Part shown: positions 7,132 to 20,280 of the stretch, one piece after another
Position numbering within the stretch: position 1 is the stretch's first letter
Layout of the letters: every line of letters begins with the position of its first letter
Notes under the pieces: model-generated
Told to the model about the DNA's origin: nothing
The model's database searches: none
The model's input: only the letters and a program-made list of their open reading frames with translations
Made by a program: the position numbers and the translations under genes
Assembly (NCBI GenBank): GCA_016839745.1
Contig: JAEOTS010000055.1
Coordinates: 1 to 20,280, forward strand
DNA length: 20,280 nucleotides
Direction: 5' to 3'
DNA from: Promethearchaeota archaeon
GTDB taxonomy: Archaea; Asgardarchaeota; Lokiarchaeia; Sigyniarchaeales; SOKP01

Positions 7132-8052
7132 ATGAAAGCAGTTGTTTACACAAAATACGGACCTCCCGATGTTCTTCAGTTCAAAGAGGTAGAAAAACCT
7201 ACTCCCAAGGACAATGAAGTACTGATAAAAATACACGCAACAACAGTAACAGCAGGGGATGCGATAATGCGAAGGGGTAAACACCCTACTTCTAAATTTC
7301 AAACTCTCATGTTACATTTAGTGTTAGGTATCAGAAAACCAAAAAGACCTATACTCGGGATGGAGCTAGCCGGGGAAATTGAAGCGGTAGGCAAAGATGT
7401 CAAGCTGTTTAAAAAAGGCGACCAGGTTTTTGCATCTACCTTCTGGGTAAAGTTTGGTGGTTATGCCGAGTACAAATGTATGCCTGAAGATGGGATGTTA
7501 GCACTAAAACCAACCAATTTGACCCTTGGTGAAACTGCCGCAGGCTTTGCTTCTGGTGGACTTACAGCATTGCTTCTTCTTAGAAAAGGAAATATCCAGA
7601 GCGGACAAAAAGTTCTTATTAATGGCGCTTCTGGAAGTGTAGGGTCCTTTGCAGTACAGCTTGCCAAGCACTTTGGAGCGGAGGTTACTGGGGTATGCAG
7701 TACCTCGAATTTAGAATTAGTAAAATCTCTGGGCGCCGATAAGGTAATTGATTATACTAAAGAGGATTTTACCCAAAGCGGTGAGACTTATGATATCATT
7801 TTTGACGCTGTAGCTAAGACTTCGTCTTCACGATGTAAGAGAGCGCTAAAGGAGAAAGGAATCTTTCTTTCCGTTTTGAAATCCTCAGGAAAGGAAAATA
7901 CCGAAGATCTAATCTTCCTCAAAGAGCTTATTGAAGCGAGAAAGATAAAACCGGTCATAGATAAAACCTATCCTTTTGAACAAATTGTTGAAGCTCATAG
8001 TTATGTTGATACAGGGCGCAAAAAGGGAAATGTAGTCATAACTTTAGAATAA
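7132..8052 (+). CDS. NAD(P)-dependent MDR-family oxidoreductase (zinc-independent, Qor-like 'alcohol dehydrogenase'), copy 1
   Basis: [38 protein letters not shown] nucleotide-binding loop, GADKVIDY, C-terminal KKGNVVI. No GHE or 4-Cys zinc motifs. Confidence 0.9.
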
Positions 8053-8057
8053 TACTC

Positions 8058-9050
8058 ATGAAAGCGATTGTATGGACAAAATACGGGCCTCCGGATGTTC
8101 TTCAGCTTAAAGAGATAGAAAAGCCTACTCCTAAGGACAATGAAGTTCTGATAAAAATACATGCGACAACAGTAACATCAGGGGACTGTGAACAGCGAAG
8201 TCTCAAATTACCAATCTTGTACCGACTCCTCATGCGACTATATATTGGTCTTAGAAAACCAAAGAGAATAACTATACTAGGGATGGAGTTAGCCGGGGAA
8301 ATTGAATCAGTCGGTAAAGATGTAAAGCTATTTAAGGAAGGAGACCAAGTTTTTGCAGCTACCGGTTTTGTTGGTATGGGTACTTATGCTGAATACATAT
8401 GTCTGCCTGAAGAACCTAAAGAAGGGGTACTAGCACTAAAACCAACTAATATGACCTATGAGGAAGCAACCGCCGTTCCTGTTGGGGGAATTGAAGCATT
8501 GCATTTTATTAGAAAAGGAAATATCAAGAGCGGCCAAAAGGTTTTGATTAATGGTGCTTCTGGAACCATAGGCACTTTTGCGGTACAGCTTGCCAAGTAC
8601 TTTGGGGGTGAAGTGACTGGCGTGGCCGGCACGAGGAACTTGGACATGCTACGTTCCATTGGTGCAGACCAGGTCATTGATTACACTCAAGAAGATTTCA
8701 CCAAAAGAGGTGAGACCTATGATTTTATTCTTGACATTGTAAGCAAGAGTTCGTTTTCAGGTAGTATAAGATCGCTAAAACAAAACGGATTCTATCTTAT
8801 AGCTGACCCGGGGCTGTCACAGATGGTTCGAGGGCGATGGACTTCAATGACAAGCAACAAAAAAGTGATGTTTAGGGCAGCACACCCAAAGATTGAAGAT
8901 TTAATTTACCTCAAAGAGCTTATTGAGGCAGGGAAGCTAAAATCGGTCATAGATAGACGCTATCCGCTGGAACAGACTGCCGAGGCCCACAAGTATGTTG
9001 AAACAGGTAATAAAAAGGGACATGTGATAATAACTGTGGAACATAAGTAA
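8058..9050 (+). CDS. NAD(P)-dependent MDR-family oxidoreductase, copy 2
   Basis: Same motifs as copy 1 ([17 protein letters not shown]). Confidence 0.9.
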
Positions 9051-9070
9051 TAAAATAAAATGGTGAAAAA

Positions 9071-10078
9071 ATGGAAAATAAAATGAAAGCGATTGTATGT
9101 ACAAAATACGGGCCTCCGGATGTTCTTCAGCTCAAAGAGGTAGAAAAACCTACTCCTACGGACAATGAAGTACTGATAAAAATATATGCAACAACAGTAA
9201 CAAAAGGGGACTGTGAACTTCGAAGAGGCGAAATCCCTATCACCATCTTGTTATGGCTCCCCATGCGAATAGCAGTTGGTTTCAGAGGACCCAGAAAAAA
9301 AATACTAGGACAAGAGCTAGCCGGAAAAATTGAAGCAGTAGGCAAAGATGTAAAACTGTTTAGGAAAGATGACCAAGTTTTTGCAGCTACCGGTTTTGGT
9401 TTTGGTGCTTATGCAGAGTACATATGTCTGCCTGAAGAATCGAATGGAGGGAAGACGGGGATAGTAGCACTAAAACCGGCTAATACGACCTATGAGGAAG
9501 CAGCCGCCGTTCCTGTTGGAGGACTTGAAGCATTGCATTTTCTTAGAAAAGTAAATATTCAGAGCGGACACAAGGTTTTGATTAATGGTGCGAGTGGAAC
9601 TATTGGTACGTTTGCCGTGCAGATAGCCAAAATGTTTGGGGCTGAAGTGACTGGCGTAGCCAGCACGAAGAAATTGGACATGGTGCGCTCGATTGGTGCA
9701 GACCATGTCATTGATTACACTCAAGAAGATTTCACCAAAAACGGTGAGACCTATGATGTTATTTTTGATGTGGTAGGAAAGAGCTCGTTTTCAAGTTGTT
9801 TAAGATCGCTAAAGAATAAAGGATTCTATCTTATAGCTAACCCTAGGCTGTCATCTATTGTTCGAGGGAAATGGACTTCAAGGACAAGCAGCAAGAGTGT
9901 AATAAATTGGACAGCAAGCCAAAGGACCGAAGATTTAATTTTCCTCAAAGAGATTATTGAGGCGGGGAAGCTAAAATCGGTCATAGATAAATCATATCCG
10001 TTGGAACAAATGGTCGAGGCTCATACCTATGTTGATAAAGGACACAAAAAGGGAAATGTGGTAATAACTGTAGAATAG
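9071..10078 (+). CDS. NAD(P)-dependent MDR-family oxidoreductase, copy 3
   Basis: Same motifs; GGTGA RBS at 9062-9066. Confidence 0.9.
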
Positions 10079-10129
10079 ATAAACAAACTATAATTTCTCA
10101 ATTGTTAGAAAATATTCGTTATAATGCAT

Positions 10130-10248
10130 GTCATCACTTTATATGGAATGTATTCTAATAAGAATTTATGAAAGCAATTGTATATCAATCGATGTACAGA
10201 ATCAAATATAGCAAAGTAGAGGATGTGTTAGAATTATGGAAGATGTGA
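10130..10248 (+). pseudogene. Stub of a fifth MDR gene: promoter plus first codons (MKAIVY...), now a 26-aa mini-ORF 10168-10248 overlapping the next start
   Basis: gtcatcactttatatggaatgtattctaataagaatttATGaaagcaattgtata matches the copy-1 upstream sequence gtcttcaatttatataggatgtattctaataaggacttATGaaagcagttgttta, with the same 22-nt TATA-to-ATG spacing. Confidence 0.75.
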
Positions 10249-10604
10249 AGATAATACTTTCATTCATATGGGTTGCTACAATGTTAGTTTATTTGTTAGG
10301 TGATGTGATGCGAATTTTTGCAGGGGATTTTACACCAGGAGAAATAGAAGGTAAGCCAATGACACAGAAAATGGTGTTTGGAATGGCAATAATAATGCTG
10401 ATTCCGATTGTTATGGTTGTCCTGTCCCTGATATTGGATCATCCAGTAAATAGCGTAGTAAACATCATCGTAGCCATTTTCTGGATTGTGTTTAATCTCG
10501 CTGGAATAAAGGGGTATAAAGCCTATGATAAATTTCTGCTCATTGTAAGTATGGGGTTTAATGTACTTACAGTCTGGTATGCATGGACTCAATTTCTTGT
10601 TTGA
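10236..10604 (+). CDS. Small four-TM membrane protein, DUF6326-like
   Basis: KIILSFIWVATMLVYLLGDV...IPIVMVVLSLIL...VN..VNIIVA...VWYAW pattern recognised as DUF6326; four hydrophobic segments. Confidence 0.7.
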   Translation: MEDVKIILSFIWVATMLVYLLGDVMRIFAGDFTPGEIEGKPMTQKMVFGMAIIMLIPIVMVVLSLILDHPVNSVVNIIVAIFWIVFNLAGIKGYKAYDKFLLIVSMGFNVLTVWYAWTQFLV

Positions 10605-10657
10605 TATCAATTAGCATGGAATAATGGTATTTTTTTGAAAATAAAATGGTGAAAAAA

Positions 10658-11602
10658 ATGGAAAATAAAGAAAAAATGAAAGCTATGGTATATGAAAAAT
10701 ATGGCCCCCCGGAGGTTTTTCATCTCCAAGAGGTAGAAAAACCTGTTCCTAAAGACAATGAAATACTGGTAAAAGTATATGCGACAACAGTAAACGCTGC
10801 TGTAAAGTTAGTTCGAAGTGGTTATCACCCAGATAAAAAGATTTATACATTCGGGCTGCGAATGATGTATGGTATCAGCAAACCAAAAAGACCTATATTA
10901 GGGTATGAGCTTGCTGGGGAAATTGAAGCCGTCGGCAAAGATGTAACACTATTTAAGAAAGGTGACCAAGTTTTTGGAACTACCACCGGGTTGAAAAATG
11001 GTGCTTATGCTGAGTACGTATGCCTGCCAGAAGAATGGAAGGCTGGGATGGTGGCAATAAAACCAACCAACATGACCTATGAGGAAGCAGCCGCCGTTTC
11101 TACAGGGGCGAGCACAGCGTTACATTATCTTAAAACGGCAAACATCCAGAGCGGACAAAAAGTTCTTATCTATGGTGCTTCAGGATGTAACGGTACTTTT
11201 GCAGTACAACTTGCCAAGTACTTTGGAGCAGAAGTTACCGGAGTATGTAGTACCACGAATTTAGAATTGGTCAAATCTCTGGGAGCTGATAAGGTAATCG
11301 ATTATACTAAAGAGGATTTTACAGAAAGTGGAGAGCTTTATGATATTATCTTTGATGCTGTTGGAAAAGATTCATTCTCAAAAGGCGAGAAAGGACTAAC
11401 TCCAAACGGGACTTACGTGACAGTTTTAAAGGGGAGATATAGCGAAAAGAATGAAACTTTAATTTTCCTTAAAGAGATTATTGAGGCGGGGAAGCTAAAA
11501 TCGGCGATAGATAGAAGCTATCCCTTAGAAGAAATGGTCGAGGCTCATACATATGTCGATAAAGGGCATAAAAAGGGGAATGTCGTAATAACTGTGGTGT
11601 AA
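10658..11602 (+). CDS. NAD(P)-dependent MDR-family oxidoreductase, copy 4
   Basis: Same motifs (IYGASGCNG). Start moved from 10646 to ATG 10658 because GGTGA at 10648-10652 precedes it, as in copy 3. Confidence 0.9.
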
Positions 11603-12241: not shown

Positions 12242-12450
12242 TTATTCAGGTATAATAATTGTTGTATCTTCCTTGATTCTATCGAGAACAATTTGTGTTT
12301 TTACCTCTTCCACTCCCGAAGATTTCGTAATTTTTCAAATAGATTCATAGAATCTTCGTGATCCAAACATTTGGCCATTATAAAGAGAGGGTATTCACCC
12401 GTAATAATATAACCGTATTTGATTTTTTCCGTGTTTTCTATCTTTGTTTG
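12242..12450 (-). pseudogene. Displaced, frameshifted copy of the 3' end of the lrp/asnC gene (homologous to 16293-16502)
   Basis: Translates QTKIENTEKIKYGYIITGEYPLFIMAKCLDHEDSMNLFEKLRNL / GVEEVKTQIVLDRIKEDTTIIIPE* with a 1-nt deletion near 12318. About 35 differences in 210 nt by hand alignment, mostly third-codon positions. No start codon or HTH half. Confidence 0.92.
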
Positions 12451-12454
12451 ATAA

Positions 12455-13018
12455 TTAGGTAGGTTTTCGTTTCCAAATTTTCATCGATTCAAAAATGAAT
12501 ACACAAGTGCAATAAATTATAAAAAACAGAAAAAGTAGGCTCGCAGGATGGGTAATAAACACATCACCATATATTCTTGCTAGAAATATATATCCTATAA
12601 TCCCCAGCATATTAACAACTAAGTATAAAGAATATCGGGGAATCATTAAAGGTCCTAAGCGAAAATAAAATCCTAACACACCCTTTTTTACACCTTCCAA
12701 CACATAATATTTTCCATCTTCATCGTTTTTTGAAATAATTCCTGCCTTCATTAATTTATCCAATTGATAAGCTACCGTTCCAGAAGACACCATTTTTAAT
12801 GCCTTCTGAATTTCCCTTACTCCCGCGCGATGATGAGACAAAATATACCAATATACTTGGAGAGTCTTACCATGCAATACTTTTTCCCGATTATCCTTTT
12901 TTTTTTGTGCTTTTACATCAGGATCTGACATTGGGAGTAAGGTTTCATTTTTTGATTTCGATGATACAAATTTTATTGCAAGTCCTTCCTTTTTATACTT
13001 TCGTGCTTCTGGTGTCAT
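12455..13018 (-). CDS. Membrane-anchored winged-helix (ArsR-like) transcription regulator with two C-terminal TM helices
   Basis: LHGKTLQVYWYIL...AGVREIQKALKMVSSGTVAYQLDKLMKAGIISK...GKYYV wHTH followed by two hydrophobic helices. ATGA overlap with the upstream NosD gene; the true start could be the internal Met (MSDPD). Confidence 0.8.
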   Translation of the reverse strand: MTPEARKYKKEGLAIKFVSSKSKNETLLPMSDPDVKAQKKKDNREKVLHGKTLQVYWYILSHHRAGVREIQKALKMVSSGTVAYQLDKLMKAGIISKNDEDGKYYVLEGVKKGVLGFYFRLGPLMIPRYSLYLVVNMLGIIGYIFLARIYGDVFITHPASLLFLFFIIYCTCVFIFESMKIWKRKPT

Positions 13019-14931: not shown

Positions 14932-15006
14932 ATTGGTTTCACCATTATATTATTATATTATTTTTGGATGTGATTTCGTTTTAGTTTCTCCAAAATTTGA
15001 TTTGTG

Positions 15007-15146
15007 AGACTTATTTGTCAAATGATTAATTGTTTTAATACCTTAAAAAAGTATTTTCTGAACGCTATGTTCAGCGATTTGAACAGTTTAAAATTATCTT
15101 ATAATTTTTTTAAGAGGAGGTGTTTTTCAGCAGAGAAAGGTGATTT
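15007..15146. repeat. Copy 1 of a 140-bp direct repeat (putative promoter/operator module)
   Basis: 15041-15146 versus 15997-16102 shows 4 mismatches in 106 bp; weaker ungapped similarity extends to 15007/15963. Offset 956 bp. Confidence 0.92.
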
Positions 15147-15365: not shown

Positions 15366-15439
15366 TCTTGTAAGGGTAAAACTATGCTGGATACTACTTG
15401 TTAGCTGGATGATGAGGATCTCTTGTAAGGGTAAAACTA
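15366..15439. repeat. Perfect 19-bp direct repeat TCTTGTAAGGGTAAAACTA (15366-15384 and 15421-15439) at the 3' end of the 174-aa gene
   Basis: Seen directly; 36 bp separate the copies. Confidence 0.9.
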
Positions 15440-15918
15440 ACAATTACTTCTAATGTTTCTGTTAATAAATCCCCACGTTTCCAGATCTCATAACATGGAA
15501 CATCAATAAAAGTTACAGTAAGAATCTTGGTTTTTTTGTCCTTATGGACCTCACCGCCTCTTATTTCAATAAAATATTCGTAAAAGTAATCGTCTCCTCC
15601 TTCTCCCCACCAAAATTGAACTAAATATATATCGCGCCCAATGCCGTTCATATATATATGACCAGTATATGTCCCAGGCTCAAATACTGTCTGAAATACT
15701 TCAGACAAGGTCATTGTATATATTGCATATGGATAATCGTTCGGACCACCGGCTACAACTTCCTGTGAACCTTCCAAGTCCCCGGTAAAAGTTACCCACT
15801 CGTACCTTGGATCTCGTTTGCTCCAACCAAAACTTACGAAAATCAAGGTAATTGAAAGAATTAAGACTATTGAAAGAATTAGTCTTGGAATTACTTTAGA
15901 TTTCATTATAGATTTCAT
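15394..15918 (-). CDS. Hypothetical secreted or N-terminally anchored protein, beta-rich
   Basis: 174 aa, N-terminal hydrophobic helix, strong AAGGAGGT RBS. Family not recognised. Confidence 0.7.
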   Translation of the reverse strand: MKSIMKSKVIPRLILSIVLILSITLIFVSFGWSKRDPRYEWVTFTGDLEGSQEVVAGGPNDYPYAIYTMTLSEVFQTVFEPGTYTGHIYMNGIGRDIYLVQFWWGEGGDDYFYEYFIEIRGGEVHKDKKTKILTVTFIDVPCYEIWKRGDLLTETLEVIVSFTLTRDPHHPANK

Positions 15919-15962
15919 CAGACCTCCTTAAATATTATTTTTAATTTTGTATTAATTTTATA

Positions 15963-16102
15963 AGACATATTTGTCAAATAATTATTTATTATACTTCCTT
16001 AAAAAAGTATTTTCTGAACGTTCTGTTCAGCGATTTGAACAGTTTAAATTTATCTTATAATTTTTTTAAGAGGGGGTGTTTTTCAGCAGAGAAAGGTGAT
16101 TT
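15963..16102. repeat. Copy 2 of the 140-bp direct repeat
   Basis: See 15007-15146. Contains TATTTG-T-CAAATA (15968-15980) and CTGAAC-N5-GTTCAG. Confidence 0.92.
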
Positions 16103-16292: not shown

Positions 16293-16793
16293 TTATTCAG
16301 GAATAATAATAGTCGTATCTTCCTTGATTCTATCGAGGACGATTTGGGTTTTTACTTCTTCCACACCTGGAAGATTTCGCAGTTTTTCAATGAGTTTCAT
16401 AGAATCCTCATGATCTAAGCATTTAGCCATGATAAAAAGAGGGTATTCACCTGTAACTACATATCCGTATTTGATTTTGTCTATTTTCTCTATTTTTGCT
16501 TTTACTTGTTCAATTGGTTCCTGTGAGTTAACTCTCAACGACGCCATAACCATTTCCCTGTATCCTAAATGACGACAATCAATTAAAGCTACGTACTTTT
16601 TGATTAATGTCTCTTCTAATTTTTGAACGCGAGCCCTAATTGCTGTAGCACTTTTTGGTTTATCTAATCCTAATCTATCAGAAACCTTTTCAGCAATCTT
16701 ATTAATTGTTATTTTTCCATCGTTTTGTAATAAATCTAATATTTCTCGATCAACTTCATCTATATCTATCGGTTTTGTATTATCAGTAGCCAT
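16293..16793 (-). CDS. Lrp/AsnC family transcription regulator
   Basis: IDEVDREILDLLQNDGK, HTH, YVALID...LG and a C-terminal RAM domain (YVVTGEY...LRNLPGVEEVKT). ATG 16793 preferred over TTG 16799 on GGAG spacing. Confidence 0.92.
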   Translation of the reverse strand: MATDNTKPIDIDEVDREILDLLQNDGKITINKIAEKVSDRLGLDKPKSATAIRARVQKLEETLIKKYVALIDCRHLGYREMVMASLRVNSQEPIEQVKAKIEKIDKIKYGYVVTGEYPLFIMAKCLDHEDSMKLIEKLRNLPGVEEVKTQIVLDRIKEDTTIIIPE

Positions 16794-16842
16794 CTTCAAT
16801 ACTCCAAATTTTTAATATTCAATTATAAAATAGTATATACTT

Positions 16843-16877
16843 ACTTATAACTTTTTTCACTACAATTGATGATCAAT
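16843..16877 (-). promoter_or_regulatory. BRE-TATA for lrp plus an adjacent 13-bp palindrome (candidate operator)
   Basis: Minus strand GAAAAAAG-TTATAAGT at 16843-16858; ATTGAT-G-ATCAAT at 16865-16877. Confidence 0.5.
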
Positions 16878-17034
16878 CTAGTTTTTTTCTCTAATTAAAG
16901 GTGATTCTTATAAACAAAAAAACTATGATTTAAATACTGGTCTGCATTTTAAATCTACAAGGAATATCAGATATAAACTTTATTTGGTATAAAACTAAAA
17001 AAAATAAAAAAAATATCTAAAAAAGTTGAAAAAA

Positions 17035-17259
17035 ATGGCAGATTTAACACTTAATGCGGTAGGAAAAAAATGCCCAATGCCTGTCCTCATGACTAAAAAG
17101 GAATTAAAGAAAATGAGTTCAGGTCAAACTCTAGAATTGATTGTCGACGACAAAGGAGCCTTAAAAGACGTACCTGCTCTTATTAAAAAGACCGGGGATG
17201 CAATAGTCGAGACTAATGAAGATAACGAACATATAACCTTTACAATTCAAAAAGCTTAA
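17035..17259 (+). CDS. tusA: TusA/SirA-family sulfur carrier
   Basis: LNAVGKKCPMPVLMTKKELKKM..GQTLELIVDD.GA..DVP, with the CPxP active-site motif. Confidence 0.93.
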   Translation: MADLTLNAVGKKCPMPVLMTKKELKKMSSGQTLELIVDDKGALKDVPALIKKTGDAIVETNEDNEHITFTIQKA

Positions 17260-17289
17260 ACCTTAGACTTACGAGAAAAGTGATTAGCG

Positions 17290-17658
17290 ATGACAACCTA
17301 TTCTTTTTTTATTAGTACTGAACCTTATAAATTTGAGGCGAGCGATTCGTTAATAGAAATGTGCAAATCTTTAATTAAAAAAGGGAACACGATTAAGGGA
17401 TTTTTTTTCTTTGGAACTGGCGTTTACAACATTAAGGGAGATATTAGTTGTGGCTCGTCCATAAGAGATATCCCTAAAAAATTAGAAAAATTTACTTTAG
17501 ACAATAATATTCCAGTGGCGGGGTGTTCTACCTGGGTAAGTTTAACAGGTTTAAATGAGTCAACTTTCATTGAGGGGGCGACCGAAGAAGGCTTAGGAGA
17601 TTTTTCTAATTGGGCTGTAGAATCAGACAAAATAATAGTATTTGGCACGGGGGGATAA
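17290..17658 (+). CDS. dsrE: DsrE/TusD-like sulfurtransferase subunit
   Basis: STEPY, FFFFGTGVYN, VAGCSTW (candidate persulfide Cys), GLGDF..WAVESDKIIVF; first of three DsrEFH-sized genes. Confidence 0.75.
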   Translation: MTTYSFFISTEPYKFEASDSLIEMCKSLIKKGNTIKGFFFFGTGVYNIKGDISCGSSIRDIPKKLEKFTLDNNIPVAGCSTWVSLTGLNESTFIEGATEEGLGDFSNWAVESDKIIVFGTGG

Positions 17659-17663
17659 TCATA

Positions 17664-18032
17664 ATGATAGAATCTGTAGTAATAATAACCGATCAATCAC
17701 CAATGGGCAAAAATTCCGCTTTAGAAGCAATTCGTATAGGGTCGGGATTCGTTGCGCTTGGAGAATATGTTAACTGTCAAATCGTATTTACGGGAGACGC
17801 GGTGTATTTACTCAACAAAAACGCTAAACCAGAGGCAATTGGGATGGACTCATTAGATGAAGTTATGGAGATCGCGGACTTATCAGACTTAGAACTTTAT
17901 GTTGTGGATCAGGCGTTAAAAGATGCAGGGATGAGTAATGATGACCTGGTTGAATACGAAAATTTGAAGATCATCACGATTGATGAAGTTGTTGAATTAA
18001 TTGAAAACGCAGATACAAGTTTTAGATTTTAA
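17664..18032 (+). CDS. dsrF: DsrF/TusC-like subunit
   Basis: VVIITDQSPMG...ALEAIR...VFTGDAVYLL...YVVDQAL..AGM. Start moved from 17610 to ATG 17664, just after the dsrE stop. Confidence 0.75.
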   Translation: MIESVVIITDQSPMGKNSALEAIRIGSGFVALGEYVNCQIVFTGDAVYLLNKNAKPEAIGMDSLDEVMEIADLSDLELYVVDQALKDAGMSNDDLVEYENLKIITIDEVVELIENADTSFRF

Positions 18033-18048
18033 TAGAGGAGAATAAAAA

Positions 18049-18390
18049 ATGTCCGAAAATAGAAATGTGTTGTATTTGTTTGGATATAGTGAAATGACGG
18101 GGATGCACTTAGAGAGGTTAATGCCGATTTTGAAAGCACAAATTAACAAGGGTTCACAGCTTGGATTAGTATTAATTCACGACGGAGTAATAGGAATTAA
18201 TAAGAAAGGTAAGATTCCGGTGAAAATGGAAGAACTACTCAACATGAATATCACTATTTATGCAATGATCCCTGATTTACAGGCTCGCGGTATAGCTCTA
18301 GAAAATATTCACGACAAGATTAAGCCTATTGGATATGACGATTTAATCGATATATTAGATTTAACACCAAAGATAATATCTTGGATGTAA
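18049..18390 (+). CDS. dsrH: DsrH/TusB-like subunit
   Basis: LVLIHDGVIG...IYAMIPDLQARGI...IGYDDLIDIL....KIISW. Confidence 0.8.
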   Translation: MSENRNVLYLFGYSEMTGMHLERLMPILKAQINKGSQLGLVLIHDGVIGINKKGKIPVKMEELLNMNITIYAMIPDLQARGIALENIHDKIKPIGYDDLIDILDLTPKIISWM

Positions 18391-18511
18391 TAAATCCAGG
18401 AAATCAAAATAGATTTTTTGAAAATAATGGTAATAAAATATTACAAAATTTTGGAATATAAATGAATTAAAAATTAAAAAACAAAAAATAAAAAAACAGA
18501 AGTGAAAAAAT

Positions 18512-18928
18512 ATGGGAGAAACAATAAACTATATAGTTAAGGACAAATCATTCGAGAAGTTCGCAATGATGATGCTCCTAGGTACCACAGCAGACGCTAT
18601 GGAAACAAAATCCAACTTTTTCTTCACCTTTTGGGGATTAAACTTATTAACCAAAAAGTTTAAACCAAAAGTTGCTGGAATGCCTACACCTATGAAAGGT
18701 ATGGGTGCCAAAATCTTTAAAAAAAGGATGGCTAAGTTTGGAATTGAAGATCCAATGGGTATGATTAAAGACGCTGTCGAAAATGGGAACATGAAATTAT
18801 TTCCATGCCAAATGACAATGGATTTAATGGGTATAAAACGAGAAGAAATGTTTGATTTCGTTGAAGATCCTGTTGGTGCTGCAACATTCTTAGAAATGAG
18901 TGAAGGCGGAAAGATAGTCTCACTATAA
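18512..18928 (+). CDS. DsrE2/YrkE-type (DsrE/DsrF/DsrH-like) sulfur carrier
   Basis: FFFTFWGLNLL and PCQMTMDLMG...VGAATFLE are typical of this family. Confidence 0.85.
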   Translation: MGETINYIVKDKSFEKFAMMMLLGTTADAMETKSNFFFTFWGLNLLTKKFKPKVAGMPTPMKGMGAKIFKKRMAKFGIEDPMGMIKDAVENGNMKLFPCQMTMDLMGIKREEMFDFVEDPVGAATFLEMSEGGKIVSL

Positions 18929-18947
18929 ATAAACTAAATTTACAAAA

Positions 18948-18959
18948 TTTTTTTTTTTT
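18948..18959 (+). terminator. T12 tract between dsrE2 and hdrC (possible terminator or attenuator)
   Basis: Twelve consecutive T starting 20 nt after the stop; oligo-T is the archaeal intrinsic termination signal. Confidence 0.4.
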
Positions 18960-18986
18960 ATTTAAGCTAATAAAATGGTGGAAAAA

Positions 18987-19553
18987 ATGGCAGAAACGAA
19001 AGAAGAACACCGGGAATATAAGACAGATGAAGATTTCGACAAAGCGTATTTCAAAGATATAGAAAGAAAGTCGAATATCTGGCAATGTATACAGTGTGGT
19101 TCTTGTACCGCGAGTTGTGAAAGTGGTAGATGGACTGCTTTAAAGACCCGTTCGATTATTCGAAAAGTAGTTCTTGGTGATTTATCTGTGCTTGAGGATC
19201 CTGATATTTGGTTGTGTACGACTTGTTACCAATGTTACGAGCGTTGTCCTCGTGATGTAAGGCCAACTGATGTAATAATGGAACTCAGAAATTACGCTAC
19301 TAAATTAGGAAACATATCACCTACTCATAGAGCGGTCGTTGGATACTTAAAGAATTTTGGACACGCCGTTCCGATAAATGACGAGGTTAGAAAACGAAGG
19401 GTCGAATTAGGGTTGGAAGAACTCCCTCCAACTGCGTTTAAATTTAAACAAGAGGGAGATGATGAAGATTTAAAGAAATTTGAAGAACATTTATTCGATT
19501 TACCTCCTCCAAAGGAGGAGAAAAAAAAGGATGAAAAAAAAGGGGAGAAGTAA
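18987..19553 (+). CDS. hdrC: Heterodisulfide reductase subunit C (2x[4Fe-4S])
   Basis: CIQCGSCTASC and IWLCTTCYQCYERCPR motifs, GHAVPIN...R..LGL.ELPPT. Start either 18975 or 18987 (GGTGG RBS favours 18987). Confidence 0.92.
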   Translation: MAETKEEHREYKTDEDFDKAYFKDIERKSNIWQCIQCGSCTASCESGRWTALKTRSIIRKVVLGDLSVLEDPDIWLCTTCYQCYERCPRDVRPTDVIMELRNYATKLGNISPTHRAVVGYLKNFGHAVPINDEVRKRRVELGLEELPPTAFKFKQEGDDEDLKKFEEHLFDLPPPKEEKKKDEKKGEK

Positions 19554-19556
19554 GAA

Positions 19557-20280
19557 ATGGTAAAAGAACAAACATTTTCGTTTTTTCTCGGATGTCTCAT
19601 GCCAAATCGATATCCTGCTATAGAAAAAGCTACAAAGTTTGTAATGGAAAAACTAGGGTATGAGATCTTAGACATGGAACGCGCCAGTTGTTGTCCAGCA
19701 CCAGGGGTCTTTCGATCCTTTAACAAGGTTGATTGGATGGTGGCGGGTGCCAGAAACCTATGTATAGCTGAAAAACTTGATGCTGACATTCTTACAGTTT
19801 GTAATGGGTGCTTTGGCACGCTTCAAGAGATTAACAAACATTTGAAAGAGAACGAGGAACACAGAGAATTAGTGAATGAAAAGCTAAAACTGCTCGGAGA
19901 TTACGAGTTTAAAGGCACGATTGATGTACGTCATGTAGCTGAAGTATTAGGATACGAAGTTGGTCCTTGGGGGATAGAGGATCTAATTACTAGAAAATTA
20001 AACGCTCGTGCGGCTGTACATTATGGTTGTCATTTTTTAAAACCAACAAGAATTCGAGAGATTGAAAGTTCAGAAGGACCGACGATTGTTGAAGAATTCA
20101 TTGAAGTATTAGGAGTGGAATCTGTTCGATTCAAAGAGCAATTAACATGTTGTGGTGCTGGTGGAGGCGTAAAAGCGTATTCGGGCGATACGAGTATGAC
20201 GATTTTCGGAGAAAAAATGAAAAATATTGAAGAGGTTAAACCAGACTTTATTTTAGATATTTGTCCGTTCTGTCATTTAC
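19557..20280 (+). CDS. hdrB: Heterodisulfide reductase subunit B; partial, runs off the right edge
   Basis: Not in the ORF track. Hand translation MVKEQTFSFFLGCLMPNRYPAIE...ASCCPAPGVFRS...TVCNGCFGTL...VHYGCHFLKP...TCCGAGGGV...DICPFCHL shows both CCG domains. Confidence 0.95.
   Translation, partial: MVKEQTFSFFLGCLMPNRYPAIEKATKFVMEKLGYEILDMERASCCPAPGVFRSFNKVDWMVAGARNLCIAEKLDADILTVCNGCFGTLQEINKHLKENEEHRELVNEKLKLLGDYEFKGTIDVRHVAEVLGYEVGPWGIEDLITRKLNARAAVHYGCHFLKPTRIREIESSEGPTIVEEFIEVLGVESVRFKEQLTCCGAGGGVKAYSGDTSMTIFGEKMKNIEEVKPDFILDICPFCHL

Follow-up and report, generated by a model that had tools for sequence, protein, structure and literature searches.

A conserved Asgard gene array linking sulfur carriers to a canonical HdrABC-MvhD heterodisulfide reductase with an apparently hydrogenase-free donor arm

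Introduction

Canonical heterodisulfide reductase, HdrABC, is widespread in non-methanogenic anaerobes, and what it reduces there has long been an open question. We consider that question for a 20,280-nt stretch of DNA from a Promethearchaeota archaeon (class Lokiarchaeia; GenBank JAEOTS010000055.1, our contig C18), an entire contig that we call the window. At its right end (positions 16293-20280), genes for the sulfur carrier TusA, a DsrEFH-like trio and DsrE2 stand upstream of hdrC and hdrB and diverge from the gene for an Lrp-family regulator. The closest described systems each share part of this picture. In the methanogen enzyme, the heterodisulfide of coenzymes M and B (CoM-S-S-CoB) is contacted in structure 5ODR by Arg14, Gly46, Gly198, Arg201, Phe233 and Arg240 (PMC13261682). 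In the ElpABC-Hdr complex, the place of the hydrogenase is taken by a truncated and inactive FdhA, together with an F420H2 oxidase of the FrhB/FdhB type and a homologue of MvhD (PMC12350162). The papers on the sHdr systems do not mention Asgard archaea (PMC11094781). Closest in concept is a preprint on Nerearchaeum marumarumayae (bioRxiv 10.1101/2025.07.22.663070), which offers as a hypothesis, in a figure legend and one sentence, that Hdr reduces TusA- and DsrE-bound persulfides. It is the only paper that we found in the literature on Asgard Hdr with TusA/DsrE or a sulfur relay, and the core idea weighed here was thus already proposed in 2025.

The reading we put forward, and in which our confidence is evenly balanced, is that a bifurcating Hdr driven by NAD(P)H or F420H2 and lacking a hydrogenase reduces the sulfane sulfur that the relay brings to it, with H2S and reduced ferredoxin as products. 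New here are the continuation of the locus onto a second contig, the hydrogenase-free donor arm, the comparative evidence from Loki- and Thorarchaeota, the deletion variants, a dsrE2-hdrC junction that resembles a terminator, an analysis of the HdrB pocket, and an inventory of three DsrEFH sets in the genome.

Results

Conservation of the array

Gene identities rest on the open reading frame (ORF) listing and on Pfam and NCBIfam scans with curated cut-offs. All eight genes of the cluster are present with Pfam scores above those cut-offs (Table 1), and the motifs CPMP, PCQMTM, SCCPAPG and CCGAGGGV, quoted in an initial annotation made from the letters of the window, are all found in the encoded proteins. 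The arrangement which that annotation described, with TusA, a DsrEFH trio and DsrE2 upstream of hdrC-hdrB and a divergent Lrp gene, is borne out by the ORFs and the domain scans. Its gene calls stand as well, with two amendments: the break in hdrB is the end of the contig rather than an edge of the window, and the likely starts of tusA, dsrF and lrp shift.

Reading past that right edge, as had been suggested at the outset, recovers hdrA and mvhD on a second contig, C52, of the same assembly (genome G000; 3.53 Mb in 192 contigs, 32% G+C, 89% completeness, 5.8% contamination). The end of C52 overlaps window positions 19434-20280 over 847 nt at 92% DNA identity; in protein, the HdrB portion is 96% identical and 26 residues of the HdrC tail are identical. 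Beyond the full-length hdrB, C52 carries hdrA, mvhD, a gene for an MvhG-like protein (Q6), a gene for a large composite flavoprotein (FrhB::GltD) and a second tusA (tusA2). By sequence, C18 and C52 are two ends of one locus, because a search of the genome found no further close hdrC or hdrB fragment and because twelve genes of the array are contiguous in a relative of the same genus, Promethearchaeia archaeon ABR11 (G248), whose proteins are 93-99% identical to those of C18 and C52 for the most part and 77% identical for FrhB::GltD. On the same two observations we rejected the alternative that C52 is a paralogous second locus. Contigs that begin at hdrA or hdrB are found in several relatives too, and the assembly break is therefore a recurrent one.

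The full array, with lrp beside tusA-dsrEFH-dsrE2-hdrCBA-mvhD-Q6-FrhB::GltD-tusA2, recurs at the level of genus, family and order: other genera of the family have it, and so does a sister family (f3), where lrp sits between dsrE2 and hdrC; it is also present in the cultured MK-D1 and Lokiarchaeum ossiferum. Among close relatives, examined with 1.5-kb flanks, hdrC is the next gene after dsrE2 at all 29 loci, and hdrB is next in all 27 that reach far enough. On a wider scale, of 400 Asgard genomes 175 have a DsrE2 homologue and 79 have Q6, and in about 54 genomes the two lie on one contig, 4.1-6.4 kb apart and mostly at ~4.4-5.3 kb. Given this proximity and the unbroken run of dsrE2-hdrC junctions, the arrangement is not a matter of chance, and the synteny of tus/dsr with hdr that the initial annotation needed in relatives is there.

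A scan of 185,579 species genomes with the Q6 alignment returned 75 loci, all of them Asgard, including Promethearchaeum syntrophicum MK-D1, Ca. Lokiarchaeum ossiferum, Ca. Harpocratesius repetitus, Ca. Sigynarchaeum and Thorarchaeota. The guess of a probable Asgard origin thus held, every one of the 75 named loci with the Q6-marked module belonging to Promethearchaeota. As a separate matter, eight of the metagenome-assembled genomes (MAGs) in question (L085, L086, L094, L098, L110, L111, L117 and L121) are titled Hodarchaeota, Hermodarchaeota or Odinarchaeota, and their Q6 is 69-73% identical to that of the present genome, as in family-level relatives; at least two of them, G260 (L121) and G073 (L117), are placed in the genus or its close kin, and the titles look like inconsistent taxonomic labelling.

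Gene order changes across greater distances. In Thorarchaeota the order is lrp, hdrCBA-mvhD-Q6-FrhB, then tusA2-dsrEFH and tusA, without dsrE2. In a class-level relative (L056), dsrE2, tusA, lrp and dsrEF lie beside a different Hdr paralogue with a split HdrA, and in MK-D1 a second canonical Hdr adjoins tusA. Orthologues of Lrp accompany the system in Thorarchaeota, in the two Loki families f1 and f3, and in a single distant Asgard genome; the association with Lrp that had been noted in the window thus extends to several lineages. In every lineage tusA2 stands at the 3' end of the hdr unit, and TusA2 is the carrier most tightly linked to that unit. Since the linkage outlasts the differences in order between Loki- and Thorarchaeota, the carriers are indeed evolutionarily coupled to canonical Hdr, and the window holds one half of a conserved, apparently Asgard-specific system.

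The reductase

Full-length HdrB, from C52, carries PF02754 twice (two CCG domains), scores 366 bits against a TIGR03288 cut-off of 345.15 and matches 5ODC_B of a methanogen with E = 2.6e-90; the truncated HdrB of the window (241 of ~305 residues) reaches 327 bits. HdrA aligns over residues 19-661 to residues 2-647 of 5ODC_A, a long bifurcating HdrA whose ferredoxin domains are N-terminal, inserted and C-terminal, with E = 3e-194. Its score lies below the NCBIfam HdrA cut-off (743 against 1100), because those models describe HdrA-MvhD fusions; among NCBIfam models it scores best against HdrA2. Because HdrB and HdrC pass their equivalog cut-offs and HdrA aligns full length to 5ODC, the enzyme is by sequence a canonical, methanogen-type, bifurcating HdrABC-MvhD and not an sHdr. 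The methanogen character that the initial annotation saw in HdrB therefore survives the comparison with TIGR03288 and 5ODC_B.

This assignment bears directly on an oxidative alternative, in which the carriers would feed sulfane sulfur to an sHdr-like enzyme that releases sulfite. The partners that accompany shdr clusters most often are TusA and DsrE2 (PMC11094781), and so much would fit. The subunits do not: HdrA is of the long bifurcating type (671 aa, against ~340 aa for sHdrA) and covers the sHdrA structure 6TJR only in part (E = 7.6e-39), hdrC and hdrB form one pair only, MvhD is encoded together with a reductive NAD(P)H/F420 donor arm, and the array, to which this search was confined, holds no hdrH-like gene, no second HdrBC pair and no LbpA gene. 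The organism is, moreover, to all appearance of an anaerobic-fermenter type, with no evident terminal oxidase for such electrons. Membership of sHdr is ruled out by these features, and the oxidative reading as a whole is very improbable.

Of the CoM-S-S-CoB contacts, the Loki HdrB keeps R14, G46, G198 and F233, has Lys for R201 and has Thr at position 240. Arg201 is invariant in the five solved methanogen HdrBs, whereas Lys201 occurs in 42 of 45 carrier-linked HdrB orthologues. Arg240 was dropped as a discriminating residue, M. marburgensis HdrB having Val there.

The genome encodes a second canonical Hdr, hdrC-hdrB-hdrA-mvhD, at C141:3671-10677 (L005), and its HdrB retains Arg201. This cluster is preceded by a gene for a PAS histidine kinase and followed by two ferredoxin-domain proteins and an FAD/NAD-binding protein of DHODB type, which we read as resembling AsrAB/HydBG. 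In MK-D1 it is this C141-type paralogue, divergently oriented, that adjoins tusA of the carrier array.

The donor arm

The N-terminal half of Q6 has the fold of a [NiFe] hydrogenase small subunit, with MvhG of 5ODC/5ODI as its best match, and its 12 invariant cysteines would suffice for three iron-sulfur clusters. The C-terminal domain of ~150 residues is conserved, free of cysteine and without a fold match; the idea that it is a remnant of a large subunit was abandoned, Foldseek having matched the small-subunit part only. The AlphaFold model of Q6, built on a shallow alignment, has a mean pLDDT (predicted local distance difference test) of 62. In the family-level relative G216 the Q6 orthologue (C128:1089-2321) contains one in-frame TGA, which could be selenocysteine, a pseudogene or a sequencing error.

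The 821-aa protein encoded next is an FrhB flavoprotein split by an NAD(P)H module of the NfnB/GltD type. One same-genus relative, Harpocratesius and Thorarchaeota all lack the insert. Even within one genus it is found in some genomes and not in others (loci compared: L042, G260; L053, G135; L060-L062 and L072, Thorarchaeota), which implies that some variants of the complex have the NAD(P)H module and others do not. The genome also encodes F420 ligases.

Neither a [NiFe] large subunit/MvhA (PF00374) nor an [FeFe] hydrogenase (PF02906) is found in the 89%-complete genome, and no array of any relative includes a [NiFe] large-subunit gene. Without a PF00374 or PF02906 match in the genome, we rejected H2 as donor through Mvh, and the donor arm would be hydrogenase-free, consisting of the orphan MvhG-like Q6 and FrhB::GltD and apparently specific to Asgard archaea.

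Carriers and the sulfur context of the genome

The persulfide cysteines of four carriers are invariant: Cys16 of TusA (54 of 54 loci), Cys14 of TusA2 (motif CPVP), Cys79 of DsrE (47 of 47) and Cys99 of DsrE2 (58 of 58). Cys56 of DsrF is kept in 44 of 45 loci. Cys79 of DsrE, a divergent relative of TusD/DsrE, aligns with Cys78 of TusD in 2D1P, and DsrE2 matches the Sulfolobus solfataricus homotrimer 2QS7 (E = 1.3e-18) with its cysteine aligned. The trio stands in E-F-H order by Pfam (PF02635, PF02635, PF04077), while every TIGR03010/03011/03012 score lies below cut-off, DsrH only slightly so (TIGR03011, 45.7 bits against 49.2), and DsrE2 falls well short of its NCBIfam equivalog (50 against 210).

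For TusA and TusA2, models of YedF score about as well as those of TusA, all below cut-off, which leaves an opening for a selenium reading in which the carriers handle selenium and Hdr reduces selenotrisulfides or perselenides. Scores that are all below cut-off do not discriminate TusA from YedF, however, and neither selD, selA nor a SECIS feature is found in or beside the array. DsrEFH and DsrE2 have, to our knowledge, no role in selenium metabolism. We find the selenium reading scarcely credible.

The genome contains three DsrEFH sets. Besides that of the window, one lies on C149 (15779-18130; L153) in a row tusA-yeeE/tsuA transporter-dsrE-dsrF-dsrH, which by its gene content would be an uptake system of the thiosulfate-importer type. 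Another, on C73 (1065-6807; L151), is ~45% identical to the window set and near genes for a ThiF(E1-like)-TusA-like protein and a ThiS/MoaD-like protein; it likely belongs to a biosynthetic thiolation route. A dsrE-tusA pair is found on C17. With separate sets on C149 and C73, the Hdr-linked set is a dedicated paralogue.

The partners through which such carriers might otherwise act are not found. The initial annotation had remarked that the window holds no dsrC/tusE, dsrAB or mnmA; this now extends to the 89%-complete genome, in which there is no DsrC/TusE (PF04358), no sulfite reductase of the dsrAB type (NIR_SIR) and no true MnmA, PF03054 giving weak PP-loop matches only. An alternative TusE/MnmA route elsewhere in the genome, which it had named as a way in which the components might be accounted for, was thus looked for and not found, and the dedicated paralogous carriers linked to Hdr answer that objection in part. 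For a complete CoM/CoB pathway, its other proposed explanation, the search covered McrA, ComA and ComDE: the genome has no McrA and no ComA, and its sole ComDE-like gene scores below cut-off. We rejected the ComD-like match as a sign of CoM synthesis, because of this score and of its place beside a YihQ-type sulfoquinovosidase and an MFS transporter; organosulfonate catabolism is the more likely role. The surrounding cluster (C136:21728-25109; L154) encodes the sulfoquinovosidase (572 bits, above cut-off), the MFS transporter and a fused sulfopyruvate/phosphonopyruvate-decarboxylase-like protein below all cut-offs, and it may serve the catabolism of sulfoquinovose or an organosulfonate in an Asgard archaeon.

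Transcription signals

In an alignment of 11 lrp-tusA spacers from the genus and family, a conserved TTTAAATA box precedes the tusA ATG by ~95 nt, and a CTTATAA box lies towards lrp. An inverted repeat, TTTTCACTA..N17-20..TAGTT, is conserved as well and is a candidate operator. After the dsrE2 stop comes a run of twelve T residues and then, just upstream of hdrC, a TATA-like TTTATTTAA. A T-run of 7-15 nt is present in all 35 distinct dsrE2-hdrC spacers of relatives, and in the sister family lrp is inserted precisely at this T-run junction. The run is a candidate archaeal terminator or attenuator. Because of the conserved T-run, the TATA-like TTTATTTAA and the insertion of lrp at the junction, the array is probably organised as two or three co-oriented units, tusA-dsrEFH, (dsrE2) and hdrC...tusA2, with read-through possible.

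Features of the locus and its surroundings

Table 1. Coordinates of the cluster in the window and of its continuation on contig C52.
Feature	Position	Strand	Family, score or remark
lrp, Lrp/AsnC regulator	window 16293-16799	-	PF01037 and PF13404 above cut-off; divergent from tusA; likely true start ATG 16793
lrp-tusA control region	window 16800-17034
tusA, sulfur carrier	window 17026-17259	+	PF01206, 82 bits; motif CPMP (CPxP); likely true start ATG 17035
dsrE/tusD-like subunit	window 17290-17658	+	PF02635
dsrF/tusC-like subunit	window 17610-18032	+	PF02635; likely true start ATG 17664
dsrH/tusB-like subunit	window 18049-18390	+	PF04077; no cysteine
dsrE2, soluble DsrE2B type	window 18512-18928	+	PF13686, 79 bits
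dsrE2-hdrC spacer	window 18929-18974	+	T12 run, then TATA-like TTTATTTAA
hdrC	window 18975-19553	+	TIGR03290, 172.5 bits against cut-off 160
hdrB, first 241 codons	window 19557-20280	+	PF02754 twice; cut by contig end
hdrB, full length, 305 aa	C52 30207-29293	-
hdrA, 671 aa	C52 29289-27277	-
mvhD, 152 aa	C52 27283-26828	-	PF02662
Q6, MvhG-like Oxidored_q6 protein, 413 aa	C52 26835-25597	-
FrhB::GltD, 821 aa	C52 25597-23135	-	FrhB_N-GltD-FrhB_C
tusA2, second tusA	C52 23092-22856	-	motif CGLVCPVP

The remainder of the window is unrelated to the cluster and encodes NosD/beta-helix surface proteins, four zinc-type alcohol dehydrogenase (zinc-ADH) paralogues and a fragment of an ABC permease. The four paralogues (zinc-type alcohol dehydrogenase/quinone oxidoreductase; 7132-11602) lie on one strand with a DUF6326 gene between them, and one pair among them shares 82% DNA identity. 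A fragment at 12245-12474 (minus strand), some 4 kb away from the intact lrp, resembles the C-terminal half of Lrp. It matches residues 92-168 as two segments, with amino-acid identities of 69% and 83%, and is probably what a duplication has left behind as a pseudogene. A 146-bp direct repeat of 91% identity (15001-15146 and 15957-16102) flanks a 174-aa ORF at 15394-15918 (minus strand), which has a signal-peptide-like start and no Pfam match.

Discussion

From the gene content, the subunit types, the conserved linkage, the invariant cysteines and the genome-wide absences, we infer a substrate, a direction of reaction, a donor and a role for Lrp. Sulfane sulfur would enter the cell, for example as thiosulfate through the genome's TusA-YeeE/TsuA-DsrEFH locus, would travel as a cysteine persulfide down the relay to the HdrBC active site, and would be reduced there to H2S, either directly or as a di- or trisulfide between carriers. 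The electrons would come from NAD(P)H or F420H2, with the FrhB flavoprotein as the donor site and Q6, with its three predicted iron-sulfur clusters, acting as a wire, and ferredoxin would be reduced alongside. The outcome would be an electron sink, a route to sulfide without sulfite reductase, or both, placed under an Lrp-family regulator. Beyond this, we suggest more tentatively that the array may encode a new enzyme, specific to Asgard archaea and working without a hydrogenase: a bifurcating reductase of carrier-bound persulfide, driven by NAD(P)H or F420H2, whose parts are HdrABC-MvhD, the orphan MvhG-like scaffold and FrhB::GltD; a possible conclusion, and one we still doubt.

Several observations pull the other way, and the first concerns the substrate. 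The initial annotation had proposed that this Hdr acts on a protein-bound persulfide. The conserved linkage of carriers to Hdr and the invariant carrier cysteines speak for that proposal, and the almost methanogen-like pocket of HdrB speaks against it. This nearly unaltered pocket is the main argument against a bulky protein-persulfide substrate, and it suits a small-molecule heterodisulfide at least as well as a persulfide borne on a protein, although it may leave room for a persulfide on a flexible carrier loop or for free polysulfide passed on by the carriers. On the corresponding rival account, Hdr reduces a low-molecular-weight heterodisulfide resembling CoM-S-S-CoB, and the carriers supply sulfur or are simply co-regulated; carrier-bound sulfur never reaches the clusters of HdrB, and the carriers might serve thiol synthesis or general needs. 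HdrB and HdrC pass the CoB-CoM equivalog cut-offs, the methanogen contact residues are conserved except for R201K, and methanogen Hdr takes some non-native disulfides, within narrow limits (PMC13261682). Between dsrE2 and hdrC, the T-run and the TATA-like box are probably a terminator and a promoter and likewise suggest separate transcripts for the carriers and the reductase. Set against all this are the failure to find McrA or ComA, the below-cut-off score and sulfoquinovosidase context of the ComDE-like gene, and a carrier linkage, including a TusA inside the hdr unit, that outlasts the Loki and Thor rearrangements. We also know of no source of such a heterodisulfide in these organisms. On balance we think a low-molecular-weight heterodisulfide unlikely to be the substrate.

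The second concerns the carriers, which are also found on their own. Some well-assembled Lokiarchaeia have only tusA-dsrE2 or tusA-dsrEFH-dsrE2 and no Hdr, distant Asgard lineages have the carrier module without Hdr (one of them with lrp), and in two genomes of the same genus the Hdr block has been cleanly deleted down to a remnant of tusA2. In these two, L064 (G240:C156, 12812-13402) and L063 (G233:C6), the ~8-kb block from hdrC to FrhB is lost, and the 3' remnant of tusA2 directly follows dsrE2 in G240, while in G233 it lies ~5.5 kb downstream of that gene; the Hdr module is a presence/absence polymorphism within the genus. The carriers therefore do not depend on this Hdr, and the carrier module is the older and more widespread element, to which Hdr-type reductases were recruited.

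Such a history could also suit a purely domestic role, in which tusA-dsrEFH-dsrE2 would serve housekeeping sulfur trafficking (tRNA thiolation, molybdopterin, thiamine or iron-sulfur clusters) and the adjacency to hdr would be historical or regulatory. TusA and TusBCD have biosynthetic roles in bacteria, and a carrier module that is widespread in Asgard genomes without an adjacent Hdr, sometimes with Lrp, and that survives deletion of the Hdr block is what this account would predict. Yet the C73 set, near ThiF-TusA and ThiS, is better suited to biosynthesis, no TusE or true MnmA acceptor is found in the genome, the hdr unit of every lineage has tusA2 built in at its 3' end, and different Hdr paralogues have been recruited beside the same carriers in different lineages. 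We regard a housekeeping role for the Hdr-linked set as improbable.

Three further points temper the persulfide reading. At standard potentials, the thermodynamic margin is expected to be narrow when NAD(P)H drives the bifurcation to ferredoxin and a persulfide is the acceptor. The 8% divergence in the overlap of C18 and C52 may reflect two co-binned strains. At 89% completeness, all absences from the genome are provisional.

Even so, the comparative evidence for one answer to the question of the substrate is strong: in two Asgard classes, canonical Hdr stays linked to defined persulfide carriers, and this carries weight because the linkage outlasts rearrangement, the cysteines are invariant and the usual substrate and acceptor pathways were not found. 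The hydrogenase-free donor arm alters the published assumption that hydrogen feeds this Hdr. If reduction of carrier-bound persulfide is indeed its function, the physiological substrate of canonical HdrABC in a non-methanogen would be identified, and the closest archaeal relatives of eukaryotes would gain a sulfur-based electron sink that makes reduced ferredoxin, with a bearing on hydrogen-sulfur syntrophy models of eukaryogenesis. The value of this is tempered both by the preprint that precedes the core idea and by the conserved HdrB pocket, which leaves a small-molecule substrate possible. The hypothesis is open to bench work, because two cultured strains, MK-D1 and Lokiarchaeum ossiferum, carry the array.

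Comparison with known systems

Set beside HdrABC-MvhAGD of hydrogenotrophic methanogens (5ODC/5ODR), the array has full-length homologues of HdrA, HdrB, HdrC and MvhD, and its HdrB keeps both CCG motifs together with R14, G46, G198 and F233. It differs in that the genome has no MvhA, MvhG is replaced by the 413-aa Q6 with its extra C-terminal domain, the McrA/ComA context is missing, R201 is Lys in 42 of 45 orthologues, and sulfur-carrier genes flank hdr. With HdrA2B2C2 of Methanosarcina the likeness lies in HdrA, which scores best against the HdrA2 model.

The donor arm finds its nearest counterpart in ElpABC-HdrABC of Methanothermobacter marburgensis (8RVU; PMC12350162), which is likewise free of hydrogenase and likewise combines a catalytically dead scaffold, an FrhB/FdhB-type flavoprotein and a connector of the MvhD type. 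The scaffold of Elp derives from FdhA, however, and the one described here from the small subunit of a [NiFe] hydrogenase (MvhG); FrhB here usually has an inserted NfnB/GltD NAD(P)H module, and the acceptor would not be CoM-S-S-CoB.

The sHdr systems (PMC11094781; PMC4175335) share with the array an Hdr-type enzyme beside TusA and a DsrE2B-type protein, with conserved carrier cysteines. They part from it in the subunits, the array having a long HdrA, one HdrBC pair where sHdr has two (C1B1, C2B2 or B3), neither HdrH nor LbpA, an MvhD with a reductive donor arm, and a DsrEFH-like trio instead of DsrE3.

Finally, the Nerearchaeum preprint and the present work propose independently that Hdr reduces sulfur carried by TusA and DsrE. 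Evidence from gene clusters or synteny is not part of the preprint, which takes the donor to be a group 3c [NiFe] hydrogenase, whereas the donor linked to Hdr here is free of hydrogenase, in a genome with no PF00374 match.

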